From Staphylococcus phage LY01: DNA of 64,000 bases. The notes below the pieces were generated by a model, which searched no databases, had not been told where the DNA came from, and was given only the letters and a program-made list of their open reading frames with translations. This document shows, one piece after another, positions 239 to 20,795 of the stretch. The stretch is from the sequence record OR836606.1; one strand, given 5' to 3'. The translations under genes were made by a program, and so were the position numbers. The first letter of the stretch is position 1; each line of letters starts with the position of its first letter.

Positions 239-712
239 TTATTTAAAGTTATTTTTAACTAATATTCTTTTATAATCTTTTTCAGATAATAAGTCTTTTA
301 TAGCTTTAATTACATATTCATCTTTTTTATAAATTTTGTAATTATTTTTATTATCTTTAATCAAAGCGCATATATTCGAATTAGAACTTTTAATTAAACT
401 GAATACCACTTTTTCATTAAGTTTACCTTCTTCATCGAATATAATATCCTTAATACTTTCTAATATAATATCATTATAATAATCTTCTATATTATCTATT
501 TTATGATACATATTATAATGGTCTTTGTAATCTAAATGACTGAAAAATATTTGTCTTATAACCATATAGCCGCTTACATCTAGATTATTTTTAATTCTTT
601 TTCTTGTTTCTGAAATACTTGATTGTAATATATAGTAATCAAAATTAGAAGCCATTATCTTTTCATCTCTCTTTAAATAAATATTTTGGAAAGATGTATA
701 AGTATCATACAT
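239..712 (-). CDS. hypothetical protein (157 aa)
   Basis: ORF track; part of the co-directional minus-strand gene series; no recognisable motif. Confidence 0.5.
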   Translation of the reverse strand: MYDTYTSFQNIYLKRDEKIMASNFDYYILQSSISETRKRIKNNLDVSGYMVIRQIFFSHLDYKDHYNMYHKIDNIEDYYNDIILESIKDIIFDEEGKLNEKVVFSLIKSSNSNICALIKDNKNNYKIYKKDEYVIKAIKDLLSEKDYKRILVKNNFK

Positions 713-748
713 CTTTCACAATTTTATAATATATATTTAGATTGAAGT

Positions 749-7297: not shown

Positions 7298-7888
7298 TTA
7301 TGAAAAATTATCTTTTACAAATAAATTATTTAACTCTTTAAATAATTTATCAATATTACTTTCTTTATGTGAAGTTAATAAAACTTCTTTTAAAGATTCT
7401 TTAAATTGATTTAATGATAACTGTTTCCATTCCCCTTTAATATTTATATAAGCTGAATGATTTCCAGTATTATACCTTTTATATTCTTCATAGAATGAAT
7501 TAGCTGCCTTTTTATAAGTTAATATATTAATCATAGGAAGAGAATCAATTTTATCCATAAAGAAATAATATAAAGGCGTAACTTCATTTTCTGTATATAT
7601 CAAGTGATCAATAGTATTTACTAATTCTTTTATAGTTATAACTTCACTTGTCTCTTTTGTATTTAAAGATATATCTTCTAAGTTTAAATAATCAATTTCC
7701 ACTTCTTCATCTTCCTTTTCAATTGACATTAGCGTTTCTTTACTATAATGATAGTTAAAACCAGAGTTATGGGATGTGTTATTTTTATTAATTTCAAATT
7801 GATCAAATCTTTTCTTTAAATATTCATTACCCTTTAAATATTCATTAGCCTTTAAATATTCATTATAATCAGAATAAATTTTAAACAC
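7298..7888 (-). CDS. hypothetical protein (196 aa)
   Basis: ORF track. Confidence 0.5.
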   Translation of the reverse strand: MFKIYSDYNEYLKANEYLKGNEYLKKRFDQFEINKNNTSHNSGFNYHYSKETLMSIEKEDEEVEIDYLNLEDISLNTKETSEVITIKELVNTIDHLIYTENEVTPLYYFFMDKIDSLPMINILTYKKAANSFYEEYKRYNTGNHSAYINIKGEWKQLSLNQFKESLKEVLLTSHKESNIDKLFKELNNLFVKDNFS

Positions 7889-7942
7889 AACCTTTAAATG
7901 TAGGAGTAACGATCAAAATAATAATCATTACTCCAATTTAAT

Positions 7943-8392
7943 TTATTTACTTTCTTCAATAATTTCTTTAACTAAATTATTTATTTCTTGAGGTTTTAAA
8001 TCATTGATATCATCTACATTTTCATATTTTTCCATTAAGAATTCTAATTGATCTTCATTTAAATCCATAATACCTAGTAATTCATCTTCTTCAGGTTCAT
8101 CAAATGTCATACTAACATTTAATGGGCTGAAGTAAGCATTAAGTACTTTAGTATTATTATTTTGAGTTCTTTTTTGTATATCTTTTGTATTGATCTTAAA
8201 TGGATTACCTGTATATAATTCAACTAATAAACGTTTACGCATATCTGGATTATTTGAGTACATATTCGTTAATTGATTGATTGCTTTGATAGAGCCACCG
8301 ATCATCATATTAGTTGTTTCCATTTCACCGATGCGGAGCGGATTGTTGTTAATTCTTGACAAATATTTCTTGGACATGTGTATTAGCTTCAT
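7943..8392 (-). CDS. hypothetical protein (149 aa); possibly the downstream segment of a gene interrupted by the 4-copy repeat array
   Basis: ATG at 8390-8392 lies inside hairpin H0 of repeat copy E1 and has no Shine-Dalgarno; an in-frame TAG sits in the conserved GATATAGTCT box just upstream. Confidence 0.45.
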   Translation of the reverse strand: MKLIHMSKKYLSRINNNPLRIGEMETTNMMIGGSIKAINQLTNMYSNNPDMRKRLLVELYTGNPFKINTKDIQKRTQNNNTKVLNAYFSPLNVSMTFDEPEEDELLGIMDLNEDQLEFLMEKYENVDDINDLKPQEINNLVKEIIEESK

Positions 8393-8523
8393 GCATTTTG
8401 CATAAAGATTAGACTATATCATTACCATTTAAGGTAGAATATATTTAGTCGTTGAACAAGCCTTACCGACTTGATGCTGATTTAATTAATAAATTATTCC
8501 AGCAATTAATATTACTTTTTTAT
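8391..8523 (+). repeat. structured intervening repeat element, copy E1 (first of 4 tandem copies)
   Basis: boxes as read on + strand: palindrome H0 (atgcattttgcat) - AGACTATATC - hairpin H1 - ATATATTTAGTCGTTGAAC - hairpin H2 (CAAG..CTTG) - GATGCTGAT - TTCCAGCAATTAATATT. Confidence 0.8.
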
Positions 8524-8588
8524 ATTATTCTTTCGAATAATACCGGACACAAGAAATTTATCCGGAGTTCTAGTAGGTCGTTTATCTT

Positions 8589-8720
8589 ATATTAATTTTA
8601 ATACAAGACAGACTATATCATACTCATTATTATGAGTGAATATATTTAGTCGTTGAACAATTTTCATTGATGCTGATTATTCTTAATAGAACTTTCCAGC
8701 AATTAATATTCTTTTACTGA
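8589..8720 (+). repeat. structured intervening repeat element, copy E2
   Basis: TTTATCTTAT - H0 (tattaattttaata) - CAGACTATATC - H1 (ACTCAT/ATGAGT) - ATATATTTAGTCGTTGAAC - H2 (CAAT/ATTG) - GATGCTGAT - TTCCAGCAATTAATATT. Confidence 0.8.
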
Positions 8721-8786
8721 GACATCTACATATCCCACTGTAATTGTTAAAGTCTAATGATTTTGCACTGATTTTCTTTACGTTAA

Positions 8787-8921
8787 TCTATATAATTTAT
8801 TATATAGAACAGACTATATCTTATACTTTTGAAGCATTAATATATTTAGTCGTTGAACAGTATTTAACTGATGCTAATCAATTTTATTAAATCGTCCTAG
8901 CAATTAATATTATAATTATAA
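8787..8921 (+). repeat. structured intervening repeat element, copy E3
   Basis: TTTACGTTAATCTATA - H0 - CAGACTATATC - H1 - ATATATTTAGTCGTTGAAC - H2 (CAGT/ACTG) - GATGCTAAT ... CCTAGCAATTAATATT; H3 shows a compensatory change (TGCTA/TAGCA instead of TGCTG/CAGCA). Confidence 0.8.
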
Positions 8922-8963
8922 ATTATATTTCTATAATAAACGGCAAATTTTTACCTGATGGCG

Positions 8964-9097
8964 TTATTCATATAATACATTTATTATATGACAGACTATA
9001 TCATAATCTATTAATATAATAGATAATCTTTATTTAGTCGTTGAACACTTAATTGTGATGCTGATTATTCTGATAAGAATTTTCCAGCAATTAAAAG
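8964..9097 (+). repeat. structured intervening repeat element, copy E4 (overlaps the 3' end of ORF 9065..9655)
   Basis: H0 (catataata/tattatatg) - CAGACTATATC - H1 (ATCTATTA/TAATAGAT) - TTTATTTAGTCGTTGAAC - H2 (CAC/GTG) - GATGCTGAT - TTCCAGCAATTAAAAG; the last 11 codons of ORF 9065..9655 are read from the conserved 3' box. Confidence 0.75.
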
Positions 9098-9655
9098 ATT
9101 TTCGAATGAATCTTTGCAGATACATAGGAGACATCTAATTTGATTCTCATGTTTTAATTTAAGGTGATACAAATCTCCAACCATAAATGTTCTATTACTT
9201 ACGTCTAATCTATTTTTCTTAATATTATATTTATTAAATACGTATCTTAATTGTTCTGAATCAATATTACCAAAAAATGGTGCTTGGTGTAGCACAATAC
9301 CTTCTTTAATAATTTCATCAATAGCTTCTTTAGTTTCAGATAAATCTAATTGATTAAATAATTTAACATAATTGTCATATGAAATTTTATCTACATCTTT
9401 AATATATCCTAATAGATATTCTTTCTGTTGATTAATATCATCTAATTTACTTATACGATGTCTTATTACATTTGACACATGATTTAACTCTAATTCAATT
9501 AAAGCTGATGGATTACCACGGTTAATGATACCCATATTATTATGAATTAAATCTACTCGTTTACTAATTGGTGTTTTAGTAGAATCTTTAGTGAAATCTT
9601 CTCCATCGAACTCTGTGATCATTGGCATTTGATCATCAGGTACAATTTCAGCCAC
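9065..9655 (-). CDS. hypothetical protein (196 aa); C-terminus encoded by repeat copy E4
   Basis: GTG start with AAAGG SD; C-terminal ...LLIAGKFLSE is the reverse complement of the conserved TTCCAGCAATTAA box. Confidence 0.5.
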   Translation of the reverse strand: MAEIVPDDQMPMITEFDGEDFTKDSTKTPISKRVDLIHNNMGIINRGNPSALIELELNHVSNVIRHRISKLDDINQQKEYLLGYIKDVDKISYDNYVKLFNQLDLSETKEAIDEIIKEGIVLHQAPFFGNIDSEQLRYVFNKYNIKKNRLDVSNRTFMVGDLYHLKLKHENQIRCLLCICKDSFENLLIAGKFLSE

Positions 9656-9725
9656 AACGCCTTTGCCGCCATCGAGTCTTCAGCAAAGATCGCTAATCTT
9701 TGCCCGTTCTCTTATGAACTGCTCT
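9656..9725 (-). promoter_or_regulatory. GC-rich structured 5' leader upstream of ORF 9065..9655
   Basis: gcaaagat-tagcg-atctttgc 8-bp hairpin inside a locally GC-rich segment (ggcggcaaaggcg) about 20-50 nt upstream of the GTG start. Confidence 0.3.
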
Positions 9726-9790
9726 AGATTTTCTCTAGAAGACGAGACTATATCTTCACCCTAAAATTTAGGAGAACTATGTTTCCATTT
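9725..9790 (+). repeat. partial or degenerate copy of the intervening element (E5: H0-box1-H1 only)
   Basis: tctagattttctctaga palindrome - AGACGAGACTATATC - CCTAAAATTTAGG hairpin; the GTTGAAC, GATGCTGAT and TTCCAGCAATT boxes are absent. Confidence 0.45.
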
Positions 9791-9824
9791 AATAGAATTA
9801 CATTAAGCTAATATCACTTAAAAA

Positions 9825-10937
9825 CTAACCGCTTGGCTGTACTCTACTCATATAGTAATTTTCTTCATTATAATATATACCATTTTGTATATACATTATA
9901 TTTTCACCATACTTATCGATAGTCGTTGAACTAATTAAATTATTGTCTAATATTTCATTCATTAATTTTCTTAATGTATCTAAATATATAGTTCCTTTTA
10001 TTCTTATCATATTATAATTTTTATTTTTTATAATTAAATTTTTAGTATCATCTATTAATACACATCTATTATAATGATCCCAACCTTTTTTAACTTTACT
10101 GTTTTTCCCACCCCAAGGTCGAAAATGTTGATTTCCATCAACTTCAATTATTAAATTTAATTCAGGGATATAAAAATCATATTTATAATACTTAGATTTA
10201 GATACATTTAGATTATTGTTTATTTTAAAATCATATTCATATTTTAGATTATTTGTTTTTAATATTTTAATAATTTCTCTTTCTGCTTTAGAAAAACTTC
10301 TTTCTTTATAACAAAAAGGACATCTTATTCCACCATTAACAAAATTTTTCCTCGTTGTTGTACTATATACTTTTCCACATTTTTTATGTTTTAAAGTTAT
10401 AGGAATTGTCTCTTTTACATATTCACCAAACATCTCATATTCACCATTAGAAACTTTTTCAATATCTTTTTTACAAGATTCCGTTGTCACTTCATAACCT
10501 GAGCATCGTTTACATATTGTTTTTACTCCATCTTTTCTTTTTCTTTTTAAAAGAGTTGTAGGAGATATATTTACAATATGTCCACATTTATGTTTAAATT
10601 TCATAGACTTACTGAATCCTTTATAATCTTCTTTATTAAATGTATATTCTCCTGGTAAAAATTTATTTAGTTTGTATTCAAGATTTTCTGGTGTTTGATT
10701 TTTAGTATAGAAACAATTGGGACAATAACCATGTTCATTATCTCTTTTAAATGTATGAGGTTTGGTTTTAAATTCTAAACCACAATCTAAATGTTTAATT
10801 AATGTAGATGTATCTCCGTTAATGTATTCTCCAAGAAGTACATAATTTTTATTATTTAAAATATTTTCAAAAATTCTTTTATTTTCTTCTCTTTTCATTT
10901 TAATCATTCCTTTCAAAAAGAAATGAATATTAGACAA
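9825..10937 (-). CDS. multi-zinc-finger protein with a C-terminal Vsr/DUF559-like (PD-(D/E)xK) endonuclease domain; possible homing-type nuclease
   Basis: repeated CxxC pairs (CPNCFY, CKRCSGY, CPFCYKE) and C-terminal DFYIPELNLIIEVDGNQHF resembling the (I/F)VDGxxH nuclease motif. Confidence 0.45.
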   Translation of the reverse strand: MSNIHFFLKGMIKMKREENKRIFENILNNKNYVLLGEYINGDTSTLIKHLDCGLEFKTKPHTFKRDNEHGYCPNCFYTKNQTPENLEYKLNKFLPGEYTFNKEDYKGFSKSMKFKHKCGHIVNISPTTLLKRKRKDGVKTICKRCSGYEVTTESCKKDIEKVSNGEYEMFGEYVKETIPITLKHKKCGKVYSTTTRKNFVNGGIRCPFCYKERSFSKAEREIIKILKTNNLKYEYDFKINNNLNVSKSKYYKYDFYIPELNLIIEVDGNQHFRPWGGKNSKVKKGWDHYNRCVLIDDTKNLIIKNKNYNMIRIKGTIYLDTLRKLMNEILDNNLISSTTIDKYGENIMYIQNGIYYNEENYYMSRVQPSG

Positions 10938-11075
10938 TTTTAATTAGCTGCTGATTAACCATTGCAAAAATACTTAGGTTTTTCAACCATATATTATCTC
11001 ATTTATTATCTTCAACTTTTCAGTAACCATAGAGGTTAAATGAGCTTTAGGCAGTCCCAGCAATTAATAGTTTTT
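10938..11075 (+). repeat. degenerate copy of the intervening element (E6)
   Basis: retains GCTGCTGATTAACC ... CCCAGCAATTAATAG (H3 arms) with about 100 nt inserted between them; the other boxes are degenerate. Confidence 0.35.
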
Positions 11076-11102
11076 TAATAGCATGTTACCATACTATGAG
11101 AC

Positions 11103-12221
11103 CTAGTTTGATCTCGTTGTGATTTTCGATCCATGAACTAAAGGTTTCTTTTCTAAAACTTTAACTCTGAAAATAATCTTATCAAATTGATTGTTATCGT
11201 AAACTAATTTAGCGTTATCATCAATATATCCTTTGAATTTATTATGGATTCTAATTAAGTCATTACTAAATTTCTTTTTACGTACAATATCATCTGTAAC
11301 AGTTACAAATGTTTTATAGAAGTGTCTCAATTCTTTAATATATTTAACAAATTGCTCTGAATATTTTTGATTTTCTAATTTTTCAATATCTTCATTATTA
11401 AGAACATCAATATCAATAACTTTACCGTGAACTTTATAAGCATTATCGTCTTCTAATGTTTTAGTAAGCATTTCATTTTTGAATTTATGAATAATCTCAT
11501 CATAATTCAATCTACGAGTTGCACACAATATTCCATTTTGAACTTCTTCTCCTACATCTGGAAATGATTTATATTCTTCTTCATTACCATATAAATTTAA
11601 TGGAATATCGTTTGTATTAATAGTAATATTGATTACATTCACAAAATAACTTGACATTTTCTCTGCCAATGATTCTGATACTACAATTCCGTCTTCATTC
11701 GTCATACCTTTGAACGGTAAGAATACGGAAGTTGCATTAGCTCCATATTGAAAGTTATTATCTTCATCATAGTTCTGGTCTTTAAATAATACAGTTTCTT
11801 TACTAACCGTATCTCCAACTTTCAATTTATCAATTTCTTCATTATTATATTTATTTCCAAACTTCTCTGCTAAATGGTTAGCTTCTTCTCTAATAATTAC
11901 ATCATATTCATCATTATCTTTGTACTTAATTAAATAATATTTAACATACTTATTTTTTTCAAACTTATAAATAACTTCAAAATCTCTATCAGCTTTCTTA
12001 TATCCAGTTGAATATTTACCCACTTGATTTTCAAAACCAGTCTGAATTAAAGGCGGTTCAGCACCAGTTAATTGAATACATTGACCGATATGAGACGTGA
12101 ACATTTGAGATCTGTTACCATTAGTTCTATTAACATTAGGCATTAATAGAGGTTCTGATAAAAACTCATGACTTCGATTAGCTTCAATTTCTACCATTCT
12201 TTGTGTCTTCTCTTTTGTCAT
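11103..12221 (-). CDS. hypothetical protein (372 aa)
   Basis: long ORF; no recognisable motif. Confidence 0.55.
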   Translation of the reverse strand: MTKEKTQRMVEIEANRSHEFLSEPLLMPNVNRTNGNRSQMFTSHIGQCIQLTGAEPPLIQTGFENQVGKYSTGYKKADRDFEVIYKFEKNKYVKYYLIKYKDNDEYDVIIREEANHLAEKFGNKYNNEEIDKLKVGDTVSKETVLFKDQNYDEDNNFQYGANATSVFLPFKGMTNEDGIVVSESLAEKMSSYFVNVINITINTNDIPLNLYGNEEEYKSFPDVGEEVQNGILCATRRLNYDEIIHKFKNEMLTKTLEDDNAYKVHGKVIDIDVLNNEDIEKLENQKYSEQFVKYIKELRHFYKTFVTVTDDIVRKKKFSNDLIRIHNKFKGYIDDNAKLVYDNNQFDKIIFRVKVLEKKPLVHGSKITTRSN

Positions 12222-12375
12222 ATCTTAATACACACTCCTATAATAATGAATATATTTGTGGAATAATATGCTCTTACTATTCCACATTTTTATAATATAT
12301 ATCTTAACCAAAATTTGAATTAAGGGATTCCAATGAAGTATATTATCTTCATTGGAAATATCCCTCTTTTAAAAA

Positions 12376-13677
12376 TTAATCTTTATCTACTTCTATAGCA
12401 TTCTTATCAGAATCATAATAATTGCCATCTGAACCTAGCCAAATATCTTCTTCTTTATTAACTAGTTCAACTAATTCTAATTCTTCATTATCTAAACTAG
12501 ATTCATGTTCAATATTAGCTAAGAATTTTTCTTTATAGATACCTTTAATATAATTATCAAAGTATTCTTTAAAATCTTTATTTTCATTATATTTGTCTAA
12601 GAAAGTTTTAAGAGTGAAACTAACATCTTCATAGCCATCAATACGATAAGCTCTTGGGTTACCTTTAAGCATTTTTTCACTTTGTAAAAATAATAGATTT
12701 GATAAAGCATTATTAAAACCATTCTTTTGTTCAAAGATTAAATCAAATTTAGCACCAGCTGCATTTGAACGTGATTTAATAACTTCAACTGTATTGATAA
12801 AACCTTTAACTCCGTATTTAGCTTGATTAGAATTACCTTCTGGATCTAAAGCTTGTGATGGACTAATCTTAAACATATTATTTGCCATATAGTTGATTGC
12901 TTTACCACCTGGTAATGCTTCACCTTGTTTAAGATAATTTAATTCTTTAGGTGTAGCTGCATAAGGATTAATATCAATTTTAGTTGTAATGTGATTAATT
13001 AGAATAAGCATAATATTAGCTGAATTCAATGTAGATGAACCGATAATACGTTTAATGAATGTTGTATTATCTTTAGCTTGTTTGGTCGCATTCATTTGAC
13101 CACCCTCACCATCTTTATCATCAATCTCTTTAGAAGCCATTGTGGCAACAGAGTCAATAATAACTACTGTTGGAGCCATGAATGAAACTTTCTCTCCAGT
13201 TTCCGGATCAATTTTATCTGTATGGATAGTGAATTCTTCTTCATTTTCCAGTTTAGTATCACGTATACCACGAATTAACTGATCCACTGAATCTAAACTA
13301 ATCTTTTTATTTAATTTAATGTATTTTTCTTGTTTCATTTCCTTAGACCAACCTGTTACTTGATAAATACGTTCATCAGTAGTCGCATCTTCAAAGTCAT
13401 AATGAATAACACTTGAATTTTCATATTTTTCAACAATTCTTGCTGCCGCTTGAATGGCAAGCGTTGTTTTACCTGAACCTGATCCACCAATAAAGGTAGT
13501 TACTTTACCGCCCATTAATCCAATACGTTCATCGTCTGTAACAGTGTTCAAGAAACCATTTCTATAATCTAATAAATTAATCCCTGATTCATACATAGGC
13601 GTATAATTATCTTCTTTCCCATATACTGATGGATTTGATTTAATCAAATCATTAATTTTGCTCGTTAATTTTGACAT
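12376..13677 (-). CDS. RecA-superfamily ATPase (RecA/UvsX-like recombinase)
   Basis: Walker A GGSGSGKTT at about residue 65, in the same position and context as RecA (LDxxLG..GGxPxGRxxEIxGPESSGKTT); 433 aa. Confidence 0.6.
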   Translation of the reverse strand: MSKLTSKINDLIKSNPSVYGKEDNYTPMYESGINLLDYRNGFLNTVTDDERIGLMGGKVTTFIGGSGSGKTTLAIQAAARIVEKYENSSVIHYDFEDATTDERIYQVTGWSKEMKQEKYIKLNKKISLDSVDQLIRGIRDTKLENEEEFTIHTDKIDPETGEKVSFMAPTVVIIDSVATMASKEIDDKDGEGGQMNATKQAKDNTTFIKRIIGSSTLNSANIMLILINHITTKIDINPYAATPKELNYLKQGEALPGGKAINYMANNMFKISPSQALDPEGNSNQAKYGVKGFINTVEVIKSRSNAAGAKFDLIFEQKNGFNNALSNLLFLQSEKMLKGNPRAYRIDGYEDVSFTLKTFLDKYNENKDFKEYFDNYIKGIYKEKFLANIEHESSLDNEELELVELVNKEEDIWLGSDGNYYDSDKNAIEVDKD

Positions 13678-13873
13678 TTAACATTCACACTCCAAAAAAT
13701 ATTTAATACTATAACGTTATTTATTATACCAAATTTTTTATAAAAAAGCTAGAAATTTTCCTTAGAAATTAAAAGTTTTTTCTAAGTACATAAAGTCAAT
13801 ATTCACTTATAAAATAAAGAAATTAAATTTAAATAAAAAGATGCAGTAAGTGATATCATTAATATAGTCATAA

Positions 13874-14197
13874 TCATCTTCTCCGATCTTTAATCAATTT
13901 AAAATTATTATCTCTACTTTCATGTACAATATTTCCATTCCAATCAACTTTATCAATTTCATATCCATAATCTTTAAATCTCTTATCATTTTTAAATCTT
14001 TTAATTTGATAATTTAAATAACTTTTAGAATCAGCTTTAATGTAAATCAATTTAGCATTTTTGTTTGCCATAGTATATCTAGGTAGATTTTCTGTTGTAT
14101 TGATATTTTTATCTTTATTTTCTTTATTTAATTTACGAATATAAAATGGTAGCACTGTTAGTAGTGCTACCATTAATGTTATAGTTATTAAAAACAT
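13874..14197 (-). CDS. small membrane protein (107 aa)
   Basis: N-terminal hydrophobic segment MFLITITLMVALLTVLPFYI. Confidence 0.45.
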   Translation of the reverse strand: MFLITITLMVALLTVLPFYIRKLNKENKDKNINTTENLPRYTMANKNAKLIYIKADSKSYLNYQIKRFKNDKRFKDYGYEIDKVDWNGNIVHESRDNNFKLIKDRRR

Positions 14198-14276
14198 TTA
14201 AATTTCCTCCATATTAATAATAAATTTTACTCTGTTCTTTATCAATTTTCTTATTTAAAAGTACTTTAAATATTTA

Positions 14277-14666
14277 TTAAATTTTCAAATCATATAATTT
14301 TTCTATTATATTTTTATTATTTCTTAATAATTCTTTTTCTTCATTACTTAATTCAAGATAATTATCCTTAAAAATTTCTTTAATATTATCAATACAAATA
14401 TCAATATTTTTGTTAATTTTTATTTTCTTTAAATTAGTTGAATATAAATAAATACCTCTATCAATATTTACAACTCTTTCATTTTCTTTAAGAAGATCTC
14501 TCATTGCTGAACTAATTATAGTATGCTTAAATTCTAATCCATATTTTTCTTTAATTTTATATTTTATTAAAATTAAAGGAATTTCTTTATTTTTATTGTC
14601 TTTTAATATTTCTAATGCCAAATCTTTAAATTCGTTAGTTGGAAATTTTTTATCTATATTTAACAT
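14277..14666 (-). CDS. hypothetical protein (129 aa)
   Basis: ORF track. Confidence 0.45.
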   Translation of the reverse strand: MLNIDKKFPTNEFKDLALEILKDNKNKEIPLILIKYKIKEKYGLEFKHTIISSAMRDLLKENERVVNIDRGIYLYSTNLKKIKINKNIDICIDNIKEIFKDNYLELSNEEKELLRNNKNIIEKLYDLKI

Positions 14667-14884
14667 GAATGATCATTCCTTTTATTATTTTATTCTTCTA
14701 AATCAGCTACTCTTTCTTCTAATTATTCATACTCAATATCAGAAACATCTCTTTTTACATGTTCCCAATAATATTACAGTACTTAACAATAATCTTTTCA
14801 TTTTAAACCCCCCTTATAATAAGAGTAATGACATATAATTTGTCATTGCCTCATCTTTATTTAACTTATATATTTTTTAACCTT

Positions 14885-15274
14885 TTATAGATTATAAAAT
14901 GCTAGTAAAACATCTATCGTTGCTAAAAATAAACTTAACATGTAAATTACATTGTAAAATTTATTACTCTTACTAAAATACTGATTATCTCTCATCAATT
15001 TAAATAGAAAGAATACAAATGTTCCTCCAAATATAATTATCGATAATAATGATACTTGAGCCGATATAATATTTTTAGATAATAATATTAATGATGATAG
15101 AAATAGAATAAAATTAATAGCCATTAAGAATTTCATTCTATTTCTTATTTCTTTTTCAATTGGAATCCAAAAACTATTTTTAAATTTACCCATTCTTCCT
15201 AAGTTACTAAAAATAAAAACTAATACTAATAGTAAATCTACCATTAATATAATTAAAACCATTAAACTTTCCAT
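14885..15274 (-). CDS. integral membrane protein (129 aa, about 4 TM segments)
   Basis: strongly hydrophobic throughout. Confidence 0.5.
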   Translation of the reverse strand: MESLMVLIILMVDLLLVLVFIFSNLGRMGKFKNSFWIPIEKEIRNRMKFLMAINFILFLSSLILLSKNIISAQVSLLSIIIFGGTFVFFLFKLMRDNQYFSKSNKFYNVIYMLSLFLATIDVLLAFYNL

Positions 15275-15293
15275 ATCTTCTTCACGCTCCTAA

Positions 15294-15971
15294 TTAAAAT
15301 ACTTCAAGATCATAATCTTTTATTAAAAAATTAGATTCAATGCTGTGGATTGAATAAGTTGTTGGTAAAAATTTTTCTTCAACATTACCTCTTAAAAACC
15401 ATATAGCTCGATAGAATATTGAAGAGAAGTATCTTATATTATCGTCATTACCTAGAATTTTATCTTTTTCAATCTTCATTTCTTTCACATCAAAATAAGC
15501 ATTTATTATATCATCTTTAGTGAATTCAGGAATAAACTTACAAATTGTTAAATATAATATAGCTGAAACTTCAACAGTGTATCTTTCTCTATTTTTGCTA
15601 GTTATTTTTTTATTTCTTATTTCATCTAATCTATCCATTAATTCTTGTTCGTAAGTTTTTGTATCCGTAATCTGTATATTTCCATGCTGTCTTCTATTTA
15701 TTGCTTCTTCATCCAATTCTTTATAATGACTATGACTTGCAGGAGCTATTGAACCAAGATTATATATGCCATTATAAACATCACTCAATCTTTCCTTCAT
15801 TGCACTCTTTTCATTAAAATTCAATTCATTATAAAGTTTATCAAATTTCTCTTTGACTTCATTAACATCCTTATTAACAAATCCTACGTGACCATAATGG
15901 TTAACATCCATAGATTGTTGACTGTAAATTTTATCTAGAACATCATCAAGTTTATCTAAATCTTTACTCAA
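15294..15971 (-). CDS. hypothetical protein (225 aa)
   Basis: ORF track. Confidence 0.5.
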   Translation of the reverse strand: MSKDLDKLDDVLDKIYSQQSMDVNHYGHVGFVNKDVNEVKEKFDKLYNELNFNEKSAMKERLSDVYNGIYNLGSIAPASHSHYKELDEEAINRRQHGNIQITDTKTYEQELMDRLDEIRNKKITSKNRERYTVEVSAILYLTICKFIPEFTKDDIINAYFDVKEMKIEKDKILGNDDNIRYFSSIFYRAIWFLRGNVEEKFLPTTYSIHSIESNFLIKDYDLEVF

Positions 15972-15978
15972 AGAACTT

Positions 15979-17142
15979 TCACTCCTTTCTTCCTATTTCA
16001 GAATAATTTTTATATTCTTCAATATACTCCATTCTTTTTTCTTCCGCTAATTTATTACGAATACTTTTCATAAATTTCTTTTTATCTCTATAATTCATCA
16101 TATAATTAGTTTCTATTAAATTCGACCAATGATTCTTATCTATATTTCTTTCCACTTTATTTCCTTCAAGGTAAATAAAATCATCATTTTCCCTTTTAAC
16201 ATCATTGTTTAAATAATTTAATAATCCTTCAGTATTAAAAGGTACTTTTTCAACTCTTGTGTCTTCAAAATGTAATCCTATACGCTTATCTTCTATAGGT
16301 CCCGAATTGTAAGATTTAAAGTCAAATATTATTTTTTTATTTCTACCATATGAATTTGAATTTAATATTTGTAATTCTCCGTCATCTAATATATAGAAAT
16401 CTAATGGATGATATAAAAACCTTCTTCCGTCAAAATATTGTAAAGCATCCAACTCTTCACCAAGTTCCATATCTTTAATATAAACGTTTTCTTTTTCATC
16501 TATAATAGTTATATAATAATCACCATGTAAATTAATTAATCCAATTAATATTTTAGTTCCCAAAAATGAATATTTATAAAATACATTTAAATCATCTTTT
16601 GTATACTTGAAACCATCTCTCTCTAATCTTTTTAAATCCTCTATGTTAGTTTCAAGTAAATCTTTAAAATCTTCTATGATTCCATTCTCTTTGTTAATTT
16701 TAAATTTATCATCTTTTTTGTACACTAAAGAGAATGACAATAAATCTAAGGTTTTATCATAAGACTTTTCTCTAGTAAATAAATCCACAGCATATTTATC
16801 TTTAATATCATTTCTTTTATCTAAAACAGCTGAATAAACATCTGTAACAATCTCTTTATAGAATTCCATTTCAGGATGACTTAATAAATAATGTAAAGCA
16901 TAGTATCTCTCTTTACCATCAAAAGTATTTTCTAATTTATAAGAATCATTTAATTTTTCCATTATTTTAGTTTCATTGATTTCAATTAATTCTTCTGTAT
17001 CTTTAAGTTTTAATTCATTTTGTGAAACTCTTTTTTTCTTTGTAATTAACTTATTTCCATTATAAATCGCCATTGCAGAACCTCCTACAATGGCGATACC
17101 AGAAAATGAATAAAGTAAAATATCTAACATGTAATAATACAC
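15979..17142 (-). CDS. membrane-anchored hypothetical protein (387 aa)
   Basis: N-terminal TM segment LLYSFSGIAIVGGSAMAIY. Confidence 0.5.
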   Translation of the reverse strand: MYYYMLDILLYSFSGIAIVGGSAMAIYNGNKLITKKKRVSQNELKLKDTEELIEINETKIMEKLNDSYKLENTFDGKERYYALHYLLSHPEMEFYKEIVTDVYSAVLDKRNDIKDKYAVDLFTREKSYDKTLDLLSFSLVYKKDDKFKINKENGIIEDFKDLLETNIEDLKRLERDGFKYTKDDLNVFYKYSFLGTKILIGLINLHGDYYITIIDEKENVYIKDMELGEELDALQYFDGRRFLYHPLDFYILDDGELQILNSNSYGRNKKIIFDFKSYNSGPIEDKRIGLHFEDTRVEKVPFNTEGLLNYLNNDVKRENDDFIYLEGNKVERNIDKNHWSNLIETNYMMNYRDKKKFMKSIRNKLAEEKRMEYIEEYKNYSEIGRKE

Positions 17143-17146
17143 CTTC

Positions 17147-18247
17147 TTACATTTCTATTTTCTTATTTTCTAATTCTTTTTTATCTTCCTTAATTTCTTT
17201 AAGTTCTTCATAACCACGTAATCTTTCGTTATAAGCTTCTTCAGACATACGTTTTAAATCTTCTGTCATCTCAATCATATTATTTTGAGTTTGTTTAAGA
17301 ACATCAATGTCAATAAATGATTTATTAGATTCATTATACATTTGAACTGCATTATCTTTAAGGATATTGGAGTTACTTAATAAAATATCAGAAGTCGCTT
17401 CTCTAATAGCTTTGTTAGTTTTAATTGATTGTTGTTGCTGAATCAATACTACTGCTTTAGTTAATTGAGATTTCCAGATAGGGATACTATTTACTAAAGA
17501 ATTATTAATATTCTCTTTAAGACTATAATTAATATTCTTAATCATTTCTAATTCAAATACATTTTGCTCAGCTAAAGCTAATGAAGTACTTAAGTCATAA
17601 ATACGTTTATCAAGATTATCTAAACCTTGTTCTTTATCAGATACTAATTGAATTTGATTTTGTCTTTTATCATTTTCTTCAATATTTTCAACTTCATCAA
17701 TATCTTTTTGAATTTCATCTTTCAATTCTAGTTTTTTATATTTAGCGGCTTCAATATATTCACTCAAGCTCTCATAGTAATCTTTATTGGATTGAATTAA
17801 ATTATCTAAATTTTTATTTGCAGTATCAACTGAAGAACTGCTTTCTTTTAATTGTCTTTCAATGAAAGTCATATTATTTGAAGCTGAATCAACTTTAGAT
17901 AATTCTTTACCGATTAAATTTTCTTTACCTTTATTAAACATAGATTTAATTTTATCCATGAAACCTTTTTCTTCTTGTTTCATATTTTCATCAATCTTTT
18001 GTGGGTCATATGAGTTAAATACTTCTAACATATCATCTAGTACTTTATTAATCTTTTCATTAGAATCGTTCTCTTTAATATTCTTTAATACTTTATCTGA
18101 TTCTTTAGATAATTTATCTTGTACTTCATGTCCATACTCAATAATAGTTTTCTTATCAAGTATATTAATTTCATCAACCTTTTTAAAAACCTCCGGTGAA
18201 ATGTTCTCTCTGCTCATTAATTCATTTTTATTATTTTCCATATCCAA
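17147..18247 (-). CDS. coiled-coil protein, possibly TelA/KlaA-like
   Basis: 366 aa, coiled-coil-rich; resemblance to TelA is weak and cannot be verified without a search. Confidence 0.4.
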   Translation of the reverse strand: MDMENNKNELMSRENISPEVFKKVDEINILDKKTIIEYGHEVQDKLSKESDKVLKNIKENDSNEKINKVLDDMLEVFNSYDPQKIDENMKQEEKGFMDKIKSMFNKGKENLIGKELSKVDSASNNMTFIERQLKESSSSVDTANKNLDNLIQSNKDYYESLSEYIEAAKYKKLELKDEIQKDIDEVENIEENDKRQNQIQLVSDKEQGLDNLDKRIYDLSTSLALAEQNVFELEMIKNINYSLKENINNSLVNSIPIWKSQLTKAVVLIQQQQSIKTNKAIREATSDILLSNSNILKDNAVQMYNESNKSFIDIDVLKQTQNNMIEMTEDLKRMSEEAYNERLRGYEELKEIKEDKKELENKKIEM

Positions 18248-18325
18248 TTCATCTCCTATTATTTAAATATATTAGAGGTAATGACATATAATATGCCATT
18301 ACCTCATTTTTATAATATATATTTA

Positions 18326-18634
18326 TTATTCTTCTTGCCCGTAATCAGGTCTATTGTCTTTAAGTAGATCGGATTCGATGCCAGCACCAAGTAAATAATA
18401 GAAAGTAGTATTTAATGTAGTTTTATCAGAAAGATCATCCGGCAAATCTTCTAAACGAGAATAACCATACATTGAAATATTTTTATTTAATTCTTGCTTA
18501 GCATTCATAGAGTCTGAACGTGGACCCATTAATTCCCTTAAAATATCTTGAGCTCCGATAGCTTTTAATGCTGAAGCTTCCATATTGGAAACGCTTGCAA
18601 CTTTATCAGAACCTGTCAATTGTGATGTCTTCAT
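18326..18634 (-). CDS. hypothetical protein (102 aa); possibly the downstream segment of a gene interrupted by repeat copies E7 and E8
   Basis: ATG has no SD (acaagatcaATG); the reading frame stays open upstream into copy E7 until the in-frame TAG of the GATATAGTCT box. Confidence 0.4.
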   Translation of the reverse strand: MKTSQLTGSDKVASVSNMEASALKAIGAQDILRELMGPRSDSMNAKQELNKNISMYGYSRLEDLPDDLSDKTTLNTTFYYLLGAGIESDLLKDNRPDYGQEE

Positions 18635-18685
18635 TGATCTTGTAGACGCATCTAAGCTATACGCATTTTTCTTTGAAAGTAATTG

Positions 18686-18810
18686 TTGTACATTTAATAA
18701 TATACAATTAGACTATATTTTCATCCTATAAAGGAGATTTCTATTTAGTCGTTGAACAGTTATTTTAATCTGATGCTGATTATCTTAATAAAGACTTTCC
18801 AGCAATTAAG
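18686..18810 (+). repeat. structured intervening repeat element, copy E7
   Basis: H0 (ttgta...tacaa) - TTAGACTATATT - H1 (TCCT/AGGA) - CTATTTAGTCGTTGAAC - H2 (CAG/CTG) - GATGCTGAT - TTCCAGCAATTAAG. Confidence 0.75.
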
Positions 18811-18874
18811 AAAGATTTTTCTTTCACATTTCTGTAAAAGGAGGCTACAACAATTAACCTCTTAACGTGTAAAT

Positions 18875-19000
18875 CATTTATGTTAATCTATATAAAATTC
18901 ATATAGATCAGACTATATCTTCTTATTCATATATTTAGTCGTTGAACATTAATTTTAATGATGCTGATTAAGATAATAATCTATTCCAGCAATTAATATG
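18875..19000 (+). repeat. structured intervening repeat element, copy E8
   Basis: ATTTATGTTAATCTATA - H0 (atctatat/atatagat) - CAGACTATATC - ATATATTTAGTCGTTGAAC - H2 (CATTAA/TTAATG) - GATGCTGAT - TTCCAGCAATTAATATG; ends 18 nt after the stop of ORF 19019..20680. Confidence 0.8.
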
Positions 19001-19018
19001 ATTTTAGTTGAACAAAAA

Positions 19019-20680
19019 TTATCCAACTGGAACTTTATATCTAGTTCTCAATGGATCTTCTTTATTTCCATCATGTCTATAATAAACGAATTCATTCATA
19101 GGCACATCAAGTTTGTTTAAAGCTTCTTCAACTTCTTTAAATCCGGCCTCAGATTTATTAGGTAATACTTCAATGTAGAAGTTTTCATCACTATTAACAA
19201 ATCGCTTAATATATCTCATGAATTCTTCATCGTTCATTTCATCAAAGAATACTTTATATTTATTCATATTAGATTGATCTTTATCTAATGAAGAAATAAC
19301 ATCTAATATTTTATTTTGAATTTCTTGACGTTTCTTTTTATTATCATCAACAGCTTCATTTAAAATTGATTCTGGCTCTAATACAGTTTCATTTAAAGTC
19401 TTCTCATTGAACTTCATAAAGAATCTTTCAATTATTTCCATATTACTTGAAATAGCTTTTTGGAAATTAAATTCAGCAGGTATTTCTTTAACTGAGAATT
19501 TAAATATACCTTTATCTTCTTCATTTTCTTGATCATATCCAAATTGATATGCACAATATTTATTAACATCATCCATACTTTTAAAAACTATAGGGCTATC
19601 TAATTTAAAATCAGCTAATACATATCCTTGACCGTTATAAGAAACAGGAAATAACATTATATCATCTTTATTAGGATTTACATAAGTTACTAATTCAATC
19701 GATCTAATACCTAATTTCTTTTCTAATATTTTAAAGTATAATAGAGATAAAACGTTTGGATTAATCCTACCGTGATCTTCCGACATTCTAAAATCATCAG
19801 ATAAAAATACAGATGGAGTCACTGTAGCATATACTTCTTTTCTATCTTCGGTGAATTTAGGTTTATTATCTTTATTTTTATTATATAAGAAATTAAATAC
19901 TTCAATTTCATTTTCTAATTGATATTCATATATAACATCTTCTAGTCTTTTCTCTAATTCATAATCTCCATAATCTTTATAAAGATTAGACTCATTATAA
20001 TACATTACTTCTAGATTATTAAATAAGGGTGAATTGAGCACATTATGTTCAGTGAATATTTTATTCCATATAATATCATTTTTACTATCTAAAAATAATG
20101 TGTTACCCATTGATTCTAGAACTTTAACTAAAGTTCTTAATTTAGCATCATTATAAAAATTATACTTATCTTTATTAGATGAAACGTATTCTTCTGAATC
20201 TAAATCAAAATCTTCTTTACCTTTTCTCTTAGTTGATTCTTTACTTAAGAATCTAACTTTAACAACTTCAGATAAATTATCAACATTATTTAATACAGTT
20301 TTAATACTTCCTGTATCGTTCATTACAATAGGGTTGCCACCTTTATCGTCTCCAGCGTAATCAATTAGTAAATCTTCTTCTCTTCCTTTTTGATTCTGTA
20401 ATACGATATACTTAATTTGAGTATTGTCTTTAGGATACTTAATTAAGTATATATCAAACCAACAGGATTTGCCTTTTTTATCATATTCTTGAGAATCATT
20501 ATAATCTAATAAGAAATCCATTTCGGATTCTGTAACTAATATTTCAGCTTCATTGATTAAATCAATAGGAGATTTAATTACCGAAATATTTTCAGAATTA
20601 CATTCCGGACAAGATGTAATATTTTCATTATATTCTTGTACTAAGCTACATGAATTACATCTAATATATTTCTTTTCCAA
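19019..20680 (-). CDS. hypothetical protein with N-terminal zinc ribbon (553 aa)
   Basis: CNSC...CPEC zinc ribbon at the N-terminus; function unknown. Confidence 0.55.
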   Translation of the reverse strand: MEKKYIRCNSCSLVQEYNENITSCPECNSENISVIKSPIDLINEAEILVTESEMDFLLDYNDSQEYDKKGKSCWFDIYLIKYPKDNTQIKYIVLQNQKGREEDLLIDYAGDDKGGNPIVMNDTGSIKTVLNNVDNLSEVVKVRFLSKESTKRKGKEDFDLDSEEYVSSNKDKYNFYNDAKLRTLVKVLESMGNTLFLDSKNDIIWNKIFTEHNVLNSPLFNNLEVMYYNESNLYKDYGDYELEKRLEDVIYEYQLENEIEVFNFLYNKNKDNKPKFTEDRKEVYATVTPSVFLSDDFRMSEDHGRINPNVLSLLYFKILEKKLGIRSIELVTYVNPNKDDIMLFPVSYNGQGYVLADFKLDSPIVFKSMDDVNKYCAYQFGYDQENEEDKGIFKFSVKEIPAEFNFQKAISSNMEIIERFFMKFNEKTLNETVLEPESILNEAVDDNKKKRQEIQNKILDVISSLDKDQSNMNKYKVFFDEMNDEEFMRYIKRFVNSDENFYIEVLPNKSEAGFKEVEEALNKLDVPMNEFVYYRHDGNKEDPLRTRYKVPVG

Positions 20681-20795
20681 TATATTTCACATCCAATTCT
20701 TTTTATTTAACAATATTTGGTTGTTTCAATAGAATTTACCAAAAAATTAATAATATGAGGGAGATGACAAACTAATGTCATCTCCCAATTAATTT

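Follow-up and report, generated by a model that had tools for sequence, protein, structure and literature searches.

A virion RNA polymerase subunit gene of Staphylococcus phage LY01 probably interrupted by two tandem, very small group I introns

Phage Twort offers a precedent for several group I introns in one gene, its orf142 carrying three of them with exon skipping, and among small introns of this class is that of Azoarcus tRNA-Ile, at about 205 nt. Bacillus phage AR9 gp077 (YP_009282982), a virion RNA polymerase (RNAP) subunit, is annotated as a join of three pieces, and one of its introns holds an HNH/Vsr endonuclease gene and is labelled 'group I intron'. GenBank presents the orthologues in phages Madawaska (CPT_Madawaska_233) and Machias (CPT_Machias_239) as three-exon joined coding sequences (CDSs) for a "viral RNA polymerase beta subunit", with the remark "exon junctions predicted based on alignment to YP_009282982", and the accessible text of Korn et al. 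(bioRxiv 10.1101/2020.12.14.422802) describes RNAP subunit, DNA polymerase, terminase and gyrase B genes of this clade as intron-disrupted, as predicted from protein alignments. The Madawaska and Machias exon annotations rest on protein alignment only, and that accessible text gives no intron class or structure. We analyzed the homologous gene in a 64,000-nt stretch of Staphylococcus phage LY01 (OR836606.1; hereafter the window), where positions 18326-20680 hold a 553-aa open reading frame (ORF) and a 102-aa ORF separated by two copies, E8 and E7, of a repeat family; this part of the window is AT-rich and all its genes lie on the - strand. The intron split of this gene is already annotated and published for the sister phages, so the split itself is not new. 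We conclude with high confidence that the locus is one phage RNAP subunit gene carrying two tandem ORF-less group I introns, E8 and E7, and spliced to encode 680 aa.

A blastn search with the region returned Staphylococcus jumbo phages related to Bacillus phage AR9 at 77-93% identity (S6, PALS_2, Madawaska, MarsHill, Machias, UFV_DC4, SA1, AH12 and PB50). The gene is uninterrupted in UFV_DC4 (DC4 below; UFVDC4_00134, 677 aa) and SA1 (QPI16945, 679 aa), as it also is in Bacillus phage Goe21, and at the site of the split the intact DC4 and SA1 proteins read RTRYKVPVG-YLHVKR-LQQLLSKKNAYSLDASTRSMKTGQL (also given as YKVPVG-YLHVKR-LQQLLSKKNAYSLDASTRSMKT). Compared with the window by tblastn, the intact DC4 protein matches exon 1 over residues 1-550 (91% identity) and exon 3 over residues 557-677 (95.9% identity). 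Excision of 19020..18875 (146 nt) and 18856..18691 (166 nt) leaves an in-frame 2043-nt CDS of 680 aa, which shares 621 identities with the 677-aa DC4 protein (Table 1). The C-terminal 207 aa of this spliced product align contiguously with residues 1158-1317 of E. coli RpoB through both junctions (VTVGYMYMLKLNHLVDDK in the window against KVPVGYLHVKRLQQLLSKK in RpoB), the micro-exon segment falling on GYMYMLKL, and the exon 3 product gives a weak match to Rpb2 domain 7. The single gene unit and its exact junctions are established, and ORFs 19019..20680 and 18326..18634 are, as predicted from these alignments, exons 1 and 3 of one virion RNAP beta-like subunit gene, a homologue of AR9 gp077. A preliminary description of this DNA had proposed that the two ORFs form one split gene, and the intact DC4 and SA1 homologues, which read through the site and are matched in frame after excision, bear this out; the group I splicing mechanism and the 18-nt micro-exon are additions to that description.

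Three other placements of the boundaries were rejected. A 3' splice site of E7 after 18671 (CAAAG) leads to an immediate stop, one after 18664 (AAAAATG) loses nine residues, the intact orthologues placing the site at 18691, and a 9-nt micro-exon (splice after ACACG) is in frame but yields GFKR, which is found in no orthologue.

Table 1. Positions of the split gene, its flanking hairpins and the mini-introns of the non-virion RNAP beta-like gene
Feature	Position	Strand	Length	Remarks
Exon 1	19021..20680	-		TTG start at 20680; last base U19021 is the first base of a Tyr codon; from DC4/SA1 alignment
Intron E8	18875..19020	-	146 nt	ORF-less group I intron; terminal G 18875
Micro-exon	18857..18874	-	18 nt	AT TTA CAC GTT AAG AGG T; with flanking exon bases encodes YLHVKR
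Intron E7	18691..18856	-	166 nt	ORF-less group I intron; terminal G 18691
Exon 3	18326..18690	-		TA CAA CAA TTA to stop 18328..18326; the 102-aa ORF is its last 102 codons
Intrinsic-terminator-like hairpin	18275..18305	-		just 3' of exon 3; repeat family D1
Terminator-like hairpin	20759..20786	-		upstream of exon 1; marks the end of the preceding unit
Mini-intron 1 of non-virion RNAP gene	9145..8962	-	184 nt	from DC4 comparison
Mini-intron 2 of non-virion RNAP gene	8952..8776	-	177 nt	from DC4 comparison
Mini-intron 3 of non-virion RNAP gene	8731..8579	-	153 nt	from DC4 comparison
Mini-intron 4 of non-virion RNAP gene	8559..8375	-	185 nt	from DC4 comparison

The ends of the two ORFs are both explained by these junctions. 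The 553-aa ORF (19019..20680, - strand) starts at a TTG and ends GTT CCA GTT GGA TAA, its stop codon being composed of the last T of exon 1 and the first AA of E8; the E8 copy had been reported to lie just after this stop, and its conserved core indeed begins 16-18 nt past it. The ATG of the 102-aa ORF (18326..18634, - strand) is an internal Met codon of exon 3 (RSMKT) and is preceded by acaagatca, with no Shine-Dalgarno sequence before ATG 18634, as had also been reported. Read by hand, the frame of this ORF continues upstream of the ATG for 26 codons before it meets the TAG inside GATATAGTCT. The preliminary description had this count exactly right; only the last 19 of these codons (18690..18635) are exon, encoding LQQLLSKKNAYSLDASTRS in frame directly upstream of the ATG, and the other seven belong to the intron.

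These observations bear on the alternative that two independent genes encode a 553-aa protein, complete as it stands, and a small protein of 102 aa, and lie around intergenic repeats of the REP (repetitive extragenic palindromic) or MITE (miniature inverted-repeat transposable element) kind that have no role in RNA processing. Separate ORFs of these sizes are annotated in S6 and PALS_2, and split RNAP subunits are normal in jumbo phages. However, the 18 nt between the repeats are exactly the YLHVKR of the intact orthologues, the 19 codons preceding an ATG without a ribosome-binding site continue the protein in frame, the stop codon of the first ORF is made with intron bases, and the repeats have a covarying group I fold. 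What the homology check turned up was intact homologues, rather than a 553-aa protein complete in itself and a small gene independent of it, and we consider this two-gene arrangement, already contradicted by the intact orthologues, extremely unlikely.

Terminator-like hairpins flank the unit and no terminator-like site was found between exon 1 and exon 3, which fits a single transcript. Members of a terminator-like hairpin family (GAGGTAATGACATATAATATGCCATTACCTC and variants) occur at 664..738, 14797..14871, 18250..18324, 31929..32003 and 44037..44111, where they sit 3' of several transcription units on the - strand, among them that of the split RNAP gene.

We then found that the two excised segments have the architecture of group I introns. 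The conserved boxes of the repeat on the - strand (TTAATTGCTGGA, ATCAGCATC, GTTCAACGACTAAAT and GATATAGTCTG) are the classical group I P, Q, R and S elements, the R box having 13 matches in the window compared to 0.43 expected, a repetition far above chance. With junctions set independently by the DC4/SA1 alignment, both introns show the U.G at the 5' splice site and the terminal G of this class; a terminal G is also present in the sister introns of gyrB and of the non-virion RNAP (nvRNAP) beta gene. There is no ORF of at least 40 aa on the - strand inside 18691..19020, and neither intron encodes an endonuclease. Run with lax filters on a 411-nt stretch, RF00028 matched E7 along the full length of the model (48.0 bits, E 2.6e-11) and E8 at 20.6 bits (E 0.0041). 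A covariance model built from ten window copies (model R1) scored those copies at 90-114 bits (E 1e-17 to 1e-23), with E8 at 90.1 bits (match from 19002) and E7 at 100.1 bits. Model R1 also found two to three copies in the orthologous gene of each of Madawaska, Machias, AH12 and PB50 and none at the intronless DC4, SA1 and Goe21 loci. The presence or absence of the introns among sister phages is established.

The group I architecture, with its covariation, is established. Across 19 distinct family members, 94.8% of cells were paired compared to 31-52% with partners slid, a percentage that is somewhat inflated, the alignment having been fitted to the model structure, and 17 of the 27 pairs change on both sides, values that none of 500 shuffles reached. 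P4 is 100% paired with one compensatory change from G-C to A-U, P5 and P6 have four and five pairs, respectively, with changes on both sides, and both sides have changed in four of the six pairs of P3 (AUAUU/AAUAU, UUUCU/AGAAA in E7, AUCUUU/AAAGAU). P7 (GACUA/UAGUC) can form in every copy and never varies, and is therefore uninformative. P3, P5, P6, P8 and P9 all vary in sequence between copies while their pairing is kept.

This fold also bears on translational hopping, by which ribosomes would skip gaps of 146 and 166 nt, as in T4 gene 60. Here too a stop codon stands at the take-off position and a phage gene is split, but there are two gaps, each containing a group I core, and we saw no take-off and landing codons that match. 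The T4 gene 60 gap is 50 nt, and the gaps at E8 and E7 are three times longer. We give hopping almost no credence, and splicing of two group I introns remains the reading that we prefer.

In E7, P1 forms between the guide GCCUCCUU (18845..18838) and exon AAGAGGU with one bulge, P2 is the GAAA-capped UUACA-GAAA-UGUGA at 18837..18824, and the P3-P8 core occupies 18815..18709 with P8 present (UCUCC...GGAUGA). The first 11 intron nucleotides, UAAUUGUUGUA (18856..18846), are the exact reverse complement of the start of exon 3, UACAACAAUUA, and form a perfect 11-bp P10 adjoining the P1 guide. The Machias and PB50 counterparts are UACAACAG in the exon and CUGUUGUA in the intron, with G-C in place of an A-U pair. 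Two small hairpins between E7 and E8 had been described as extra. Both exist, and neither is extra: AAGAGG(U)...(G)CCUCCUU (- strand, 18863..18838) is P1 of E7, and GAAAGA-aaaa-UCUUUC (- strand, 18825..18810) overlaps P3 of E7. The latter is probably an alternative pairing that is not part of the active fold, because its 3' strand shares nucleotides with the 5' strand of P3, and that strand covaries with AGAAA. We rejected it as P2 of E7 in favour of UUACA-GAAA-UGUGA, which agrees with the Rfam alignment and with P2 in the Machias copy.

In E8, exon AGUUGGAU (19028..19021) pairs with the guide GUUCAACU (19013..19006) to form P1 with the U.G at the splice site, the P3-P7 core occupies 19002..18909 with the P box TTAATTGC at 18996, and the P9 hairpin has 12 bp. 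P3' and J8/7 are separated by only about 8 nt (AUAAGAAG), the P8 segment being wholly deleted in the Rfam alignment. The unconstrained minimum-free-energy fold recovers P1, P4/P5, P7 and P9 (z = -3.5), and DC4 and SA1 lack exactly this element. P1 is maintained by compensation, exon UUGGAU facing guide GUUCAA in the window and in Madawaska, and UUGGGU facing GCUCAA in Machias, AH12 and PB50. The P8-less form is found at the E8 site in five phages, at a second site in Madawaska and at two gyrB sites in the window.

Together with the inflated pairing percentage, several features weigh against a pair of active introns. Splicing in phage LY01 is deduced from the sequence. E8 has neither P2 nor P8, P1 leading directly to P3, and shows no obvious P10; E7 has no clear P9, its short 3' tail being able to pair with the 3' exon instead. 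P8 is part of the conserved group I catalytic core, which makes it uncertain that E8 acts as an autonomous catalyst. Both introns fall under the RF00028 gathering score of 50 bits (48.0 for E7 and 20.6 for E8), which is why default Rfam scans are empty: at the gathering threshold the whole window gave no intron match. An Rfam scan at E<5 on 7800..24000 likewise gave no intron match.

Such features raise the alternative that the introns, especially E8, have decayed, leaving the gene broken or its splicing wholly dependent on a phage or host protein or a trans-acting ribozyme. The low score of E8, its deleted P8, its missing P2 and the lack of an obvious P10 all speak for decay. On the other side, P8-less copies occupy the same site in five phages, although exon 1 is only about 75% identical, with P1 kept by compensatory change; they also occur twice in gyrB here and twice in the same RNAP gene of Madawaska, a phage that was isolated and propagates; and their P5, P6 and P9 vary in sequence yet stay paired. 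Exon 3, moreover, is 95.9% identical to DC4, unlike a pseudogene, and the DC4 orthologue is a protein detected in virions. We therefore consider this alternative unlikely, and a dependence of E8 splicing on a helper protein possible.

Compared to the introns of Twort and Azoarcus, the LY01 locus likewise shows compact introns with few peripheral elements, and as in Twort orf142 a single Staphylococcus phage gene holds several closely spaced group I introns, none with an ORF. The Twort and Azoarcus introns are larger than E8 and E7 and, in contrast to them, E8 has no P8 and the exon between E8 and E7 is only 18 nt.

We infer that splicing is autocatalytic and that P8-less E8 may splice without a helper. 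In the proposed mechanism, two independent group I splicing reactions would take place on one pre-mRNA. The end of the upstream exon would in each intron be paired with the internal guide (P1), placing a U.G wobble at the cleavage site, and free guanosine bound in P7 would attack after U19021 (E8) or U18857 (E7). The terminal G of the intron (18875 or 18691) would then occupy the G site, and the freed 3'-OH of the exon would be joined to the next exon, aligned in the case of E7 by the 11-bp P10. Double splicing would thus bring 1660, 18 and 365 nt together into the 2043-nt CDS, and the product would regain VPVG-YLHVKR-LQQLLSKKNAYSLD, a conserved motif of the RNAP beta C-terminal region, with junction-spanning residues VPVGYLHVKRLQQLLSK. 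On unspliced RNA, the ribosome would stop at the TAA made of exon T and intron AA. Exon skipping from the 5' site of E8 to the 3' site of E7 is conceivable; the reading frame would be kept and YLHVKR lost.

The same C-terminal region is interrupted in several relatives. Madawaska, Machias, AH12 and PB50 share with the window the E8 site after VPVG and the same 18-nt micro-exon, and Machias, AH12 and PB50 also share the E7 site, the Machias copy of E7 being 194 nt long compared to 166 nt in the window. In Madawaska, by contrast, the second intron lies six codons further downstream, after S562, and a third intron is present at G579/Q580 in Machias, AH12 and PB50. Insertion sites in the virion RNAP gene thus fall after G550, R556, about L558, S562 and G579 among sister phages, and this variety is a mark of mobile introns that target a conserved motif. 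In the homologous AR9 gp077 the same region is an intron insertion hot spot and one intron core is matched by model R1 (37.8 bits), although the sites differ from those in the window (579/580 and about 615-620) and E7 and E8 carry no ORF of the kind found in the AR9 intron. PALS_2 and S6 have a different intervening sequence, unmatched by model R1, at codon 558/559 of the same gene: 580 nt in PALS_2 (L133 752..1334) and about 1.9 kb with a 436-aa ORF in S6 (L132 752..2671). Both exons are annotated in these two phages as separate hypothetical proteins.

Like arrangements elsewhere in the window had been suggested for the gyrB pieces and for the ORF pair at 7943 and 9065, and both suggestions proved sound. 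In gyrB, excision of 33121..32966 (156 nt) and 32374..32204 (171 nt), both P8-less, restores SDAD|DDGLHI and YFKG|LGEVN, and the spliced product gives contiguous Pfam Toprim and DNA_gyraseB_C matches. ORF 31584..31931, downstream of gyrB, is a separate gene. The 7943/9065 pair belongs to an nvRNAP beta-like gene (12221..7943, - strand), an orthologue of DC4 rpoB (UFVDC4_00159, 713 aa), whose sequence is restored by comparison with DC4; it contains one intron with a 370-aa DUF559/Vsr-like ORF (9825..10937) and four tandem mini-introns (Table 1) separated by micro-exons of 9 nt (PSG), 44 nt and 19 nt. For the first mini-intron, the predicted 5' splice site follows a G (CATGAG|AAT) and not a U, as needed for the DC4 sequence HE|PSG; this G at 9145/9146 reflects either an atypical P1 or a misplaced boundary. 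One further family copy (28009..28186, - strand; core 28044..28146, 93.7 bits) lies between ORFs 28168..28530 and 27368..27799, and as a guess its 5' splice site follows TGGGT.

The best model R1 match in the window (113.6 bits) lies in the 5' part of a 1644-nt element (50557..48914, - strand), followed by a 402-aa TnpB ORF (49102..50310). The element is flanked by U| and G| and is exactly absent from the DC4 orthologue UFVDC4_00107, and Machias carries an 87%-identical copy at a different locus, annotated 'transposase'; its exact absence from DC4 and its other locus in Machias identify it as an IStron. UFVDC4_00067 was at first taken for the host gene, wrongly, blastn giving the true empty site in UFVDC4_00107. 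In IStrons such as CdISt1, BcISt1 and CboIStron, a group I intron is combined with an insertion sequence (IS) of the IS200/IS605 or IS607 type, and E7 and E8 share their ribozyme core family with the intron of the window's TnpB element. Unlike IStrons, E7 and E8 have no IS part; ribozyme and IS200/IS605/IS607 module do not occur together in either of them, and at 146-166 nt they are far from the 482-2582 nt of described IStrons. They are at most ORF-less relatives of the IStron at 50557..48914. ORF-less IStron derivatives (BcISt1 variants) and scarless splicing at IStron ends are documented.

This kinship gives some ground for regarding the repeats as non-autonomous, PATE-like DNA transposons derived from the IS200/IS605-type element of the window, with conservation that reflects DNA transposition signals rather than RNA catalysis. 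The best-scoring member is the 5' part of a TnpB element that is absent from DC4 and elsewhere in Machias, and ORF-less IStron derivatives are known. The conserved boxes, however, are the group I P, Q, R and S elements, the covarying pairings are the ribozyme helices, the guides match each local exon, which is a need of splicing and not of transposition, and no tnpA was found among the ORFs examined. Transposon and intron roles are compatible, since transposon ends and splice sites coincide in IStrons, and we consider it very unlikely that E7 and E8 are DNA transposons in place of introns.

A second TnpB-carrying element (21618..23599, - strand) lies between the GyrA N-terminal part (23600..26362) and the C-terminal beta-propeller part (20796..21617). 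It has an RF00028 match (29.9 bits, E 1e-5) at 23141..23532, upstream of the TnpB ORF 21824..23044, and appears to be a further IStron, its ribozyme being different and larger. The GyrA N-terminal ORF (23600..26362, - strand) contains an intein with a LAGLIDADG domain (Pfam Intein_splicing, 1.1e-16), as in sister phages.

Beyond the clade, an exact P-Q-R pattern scan of IMG/VR and GTDB genomes returned no match. A looser R...S pattern matched more than 120 viral loci and four genomes, which is unsurprising in that the pattern is close to the general group I consensus. Model R1 applied to these loci identified many of them as compact relatives, with cores of this type that often stand in tandem on contigs of uncultured jumbo phages, as in L063 (IMGVR_UViG_3300045988_181237), L045, L030, L037 and L016. 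In L063 (12384..13542), an RNAP beta'-like gene is broken up into micro-exons by six cores spaced at about 200 nt, and NAD and FDGD are encoded by separate exons. Cores without P8 turn up repeatedly in these contigs, and the copy at L063:13439 is its P8-bearing sibling L030:4676 minus the exact P8 hairpin. An incomplete literature search for the smallest group I intron, for P8-less introns and for phage micro-exons gave nothing usable, and, within the limits of that search, no description was found of the tiny intron size, the P8-less E8, the TnpB-IStron kinship or the tandem arrays in uncultured jumbo phages.

We propose, tentatively and as a view more doubtful than probable, that E7 and E8 represent a class of group I introns not described before, ultra-compact (about 146-185 nt) and without ORFs. 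Such a class would include a sublineage, comprising E8 and both gyrB introns, that has lost P8 and still splices; it would have its ribozyme in common with TnpB IStrons, spread as tandem arrays with 9-50-nt micro-exons in the most conserved polymerase and gyrase motifs of jumbo phages, including many contigs of uncultured phages (one case being six consecutive copies across the beta' NADFDGD motif), and be missed by standard Rfam. The features that might surprise are the predicted size of 146-166 nt, the loss of P8, the 18-nt micro-exon, the IStron kinship and the invisibility to default Rfam.

For annotation, the 553-aa and 102-aa ORFs should become one 680-aa RNAP subunit, and the same applies to similar pairs deposited as separate hypothetical proteins in S6, PALS_2, AH12 and PB50. 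A default Rfam scan found none of the ten family copies in the window, and according to the published analysis of the UFV_DC4 genome, Rfam detected no introns there either; the intron content of jumbo phages is thus probably under-counted. If it is true that E8 splices, a natural P8-less group I intron of 146 nt would lower the known size limit of the class and provide a minimal scaffold for study. The core that these introns have in common with the TnpB IStron suggests a route by which introns may multiply within a phage genome.

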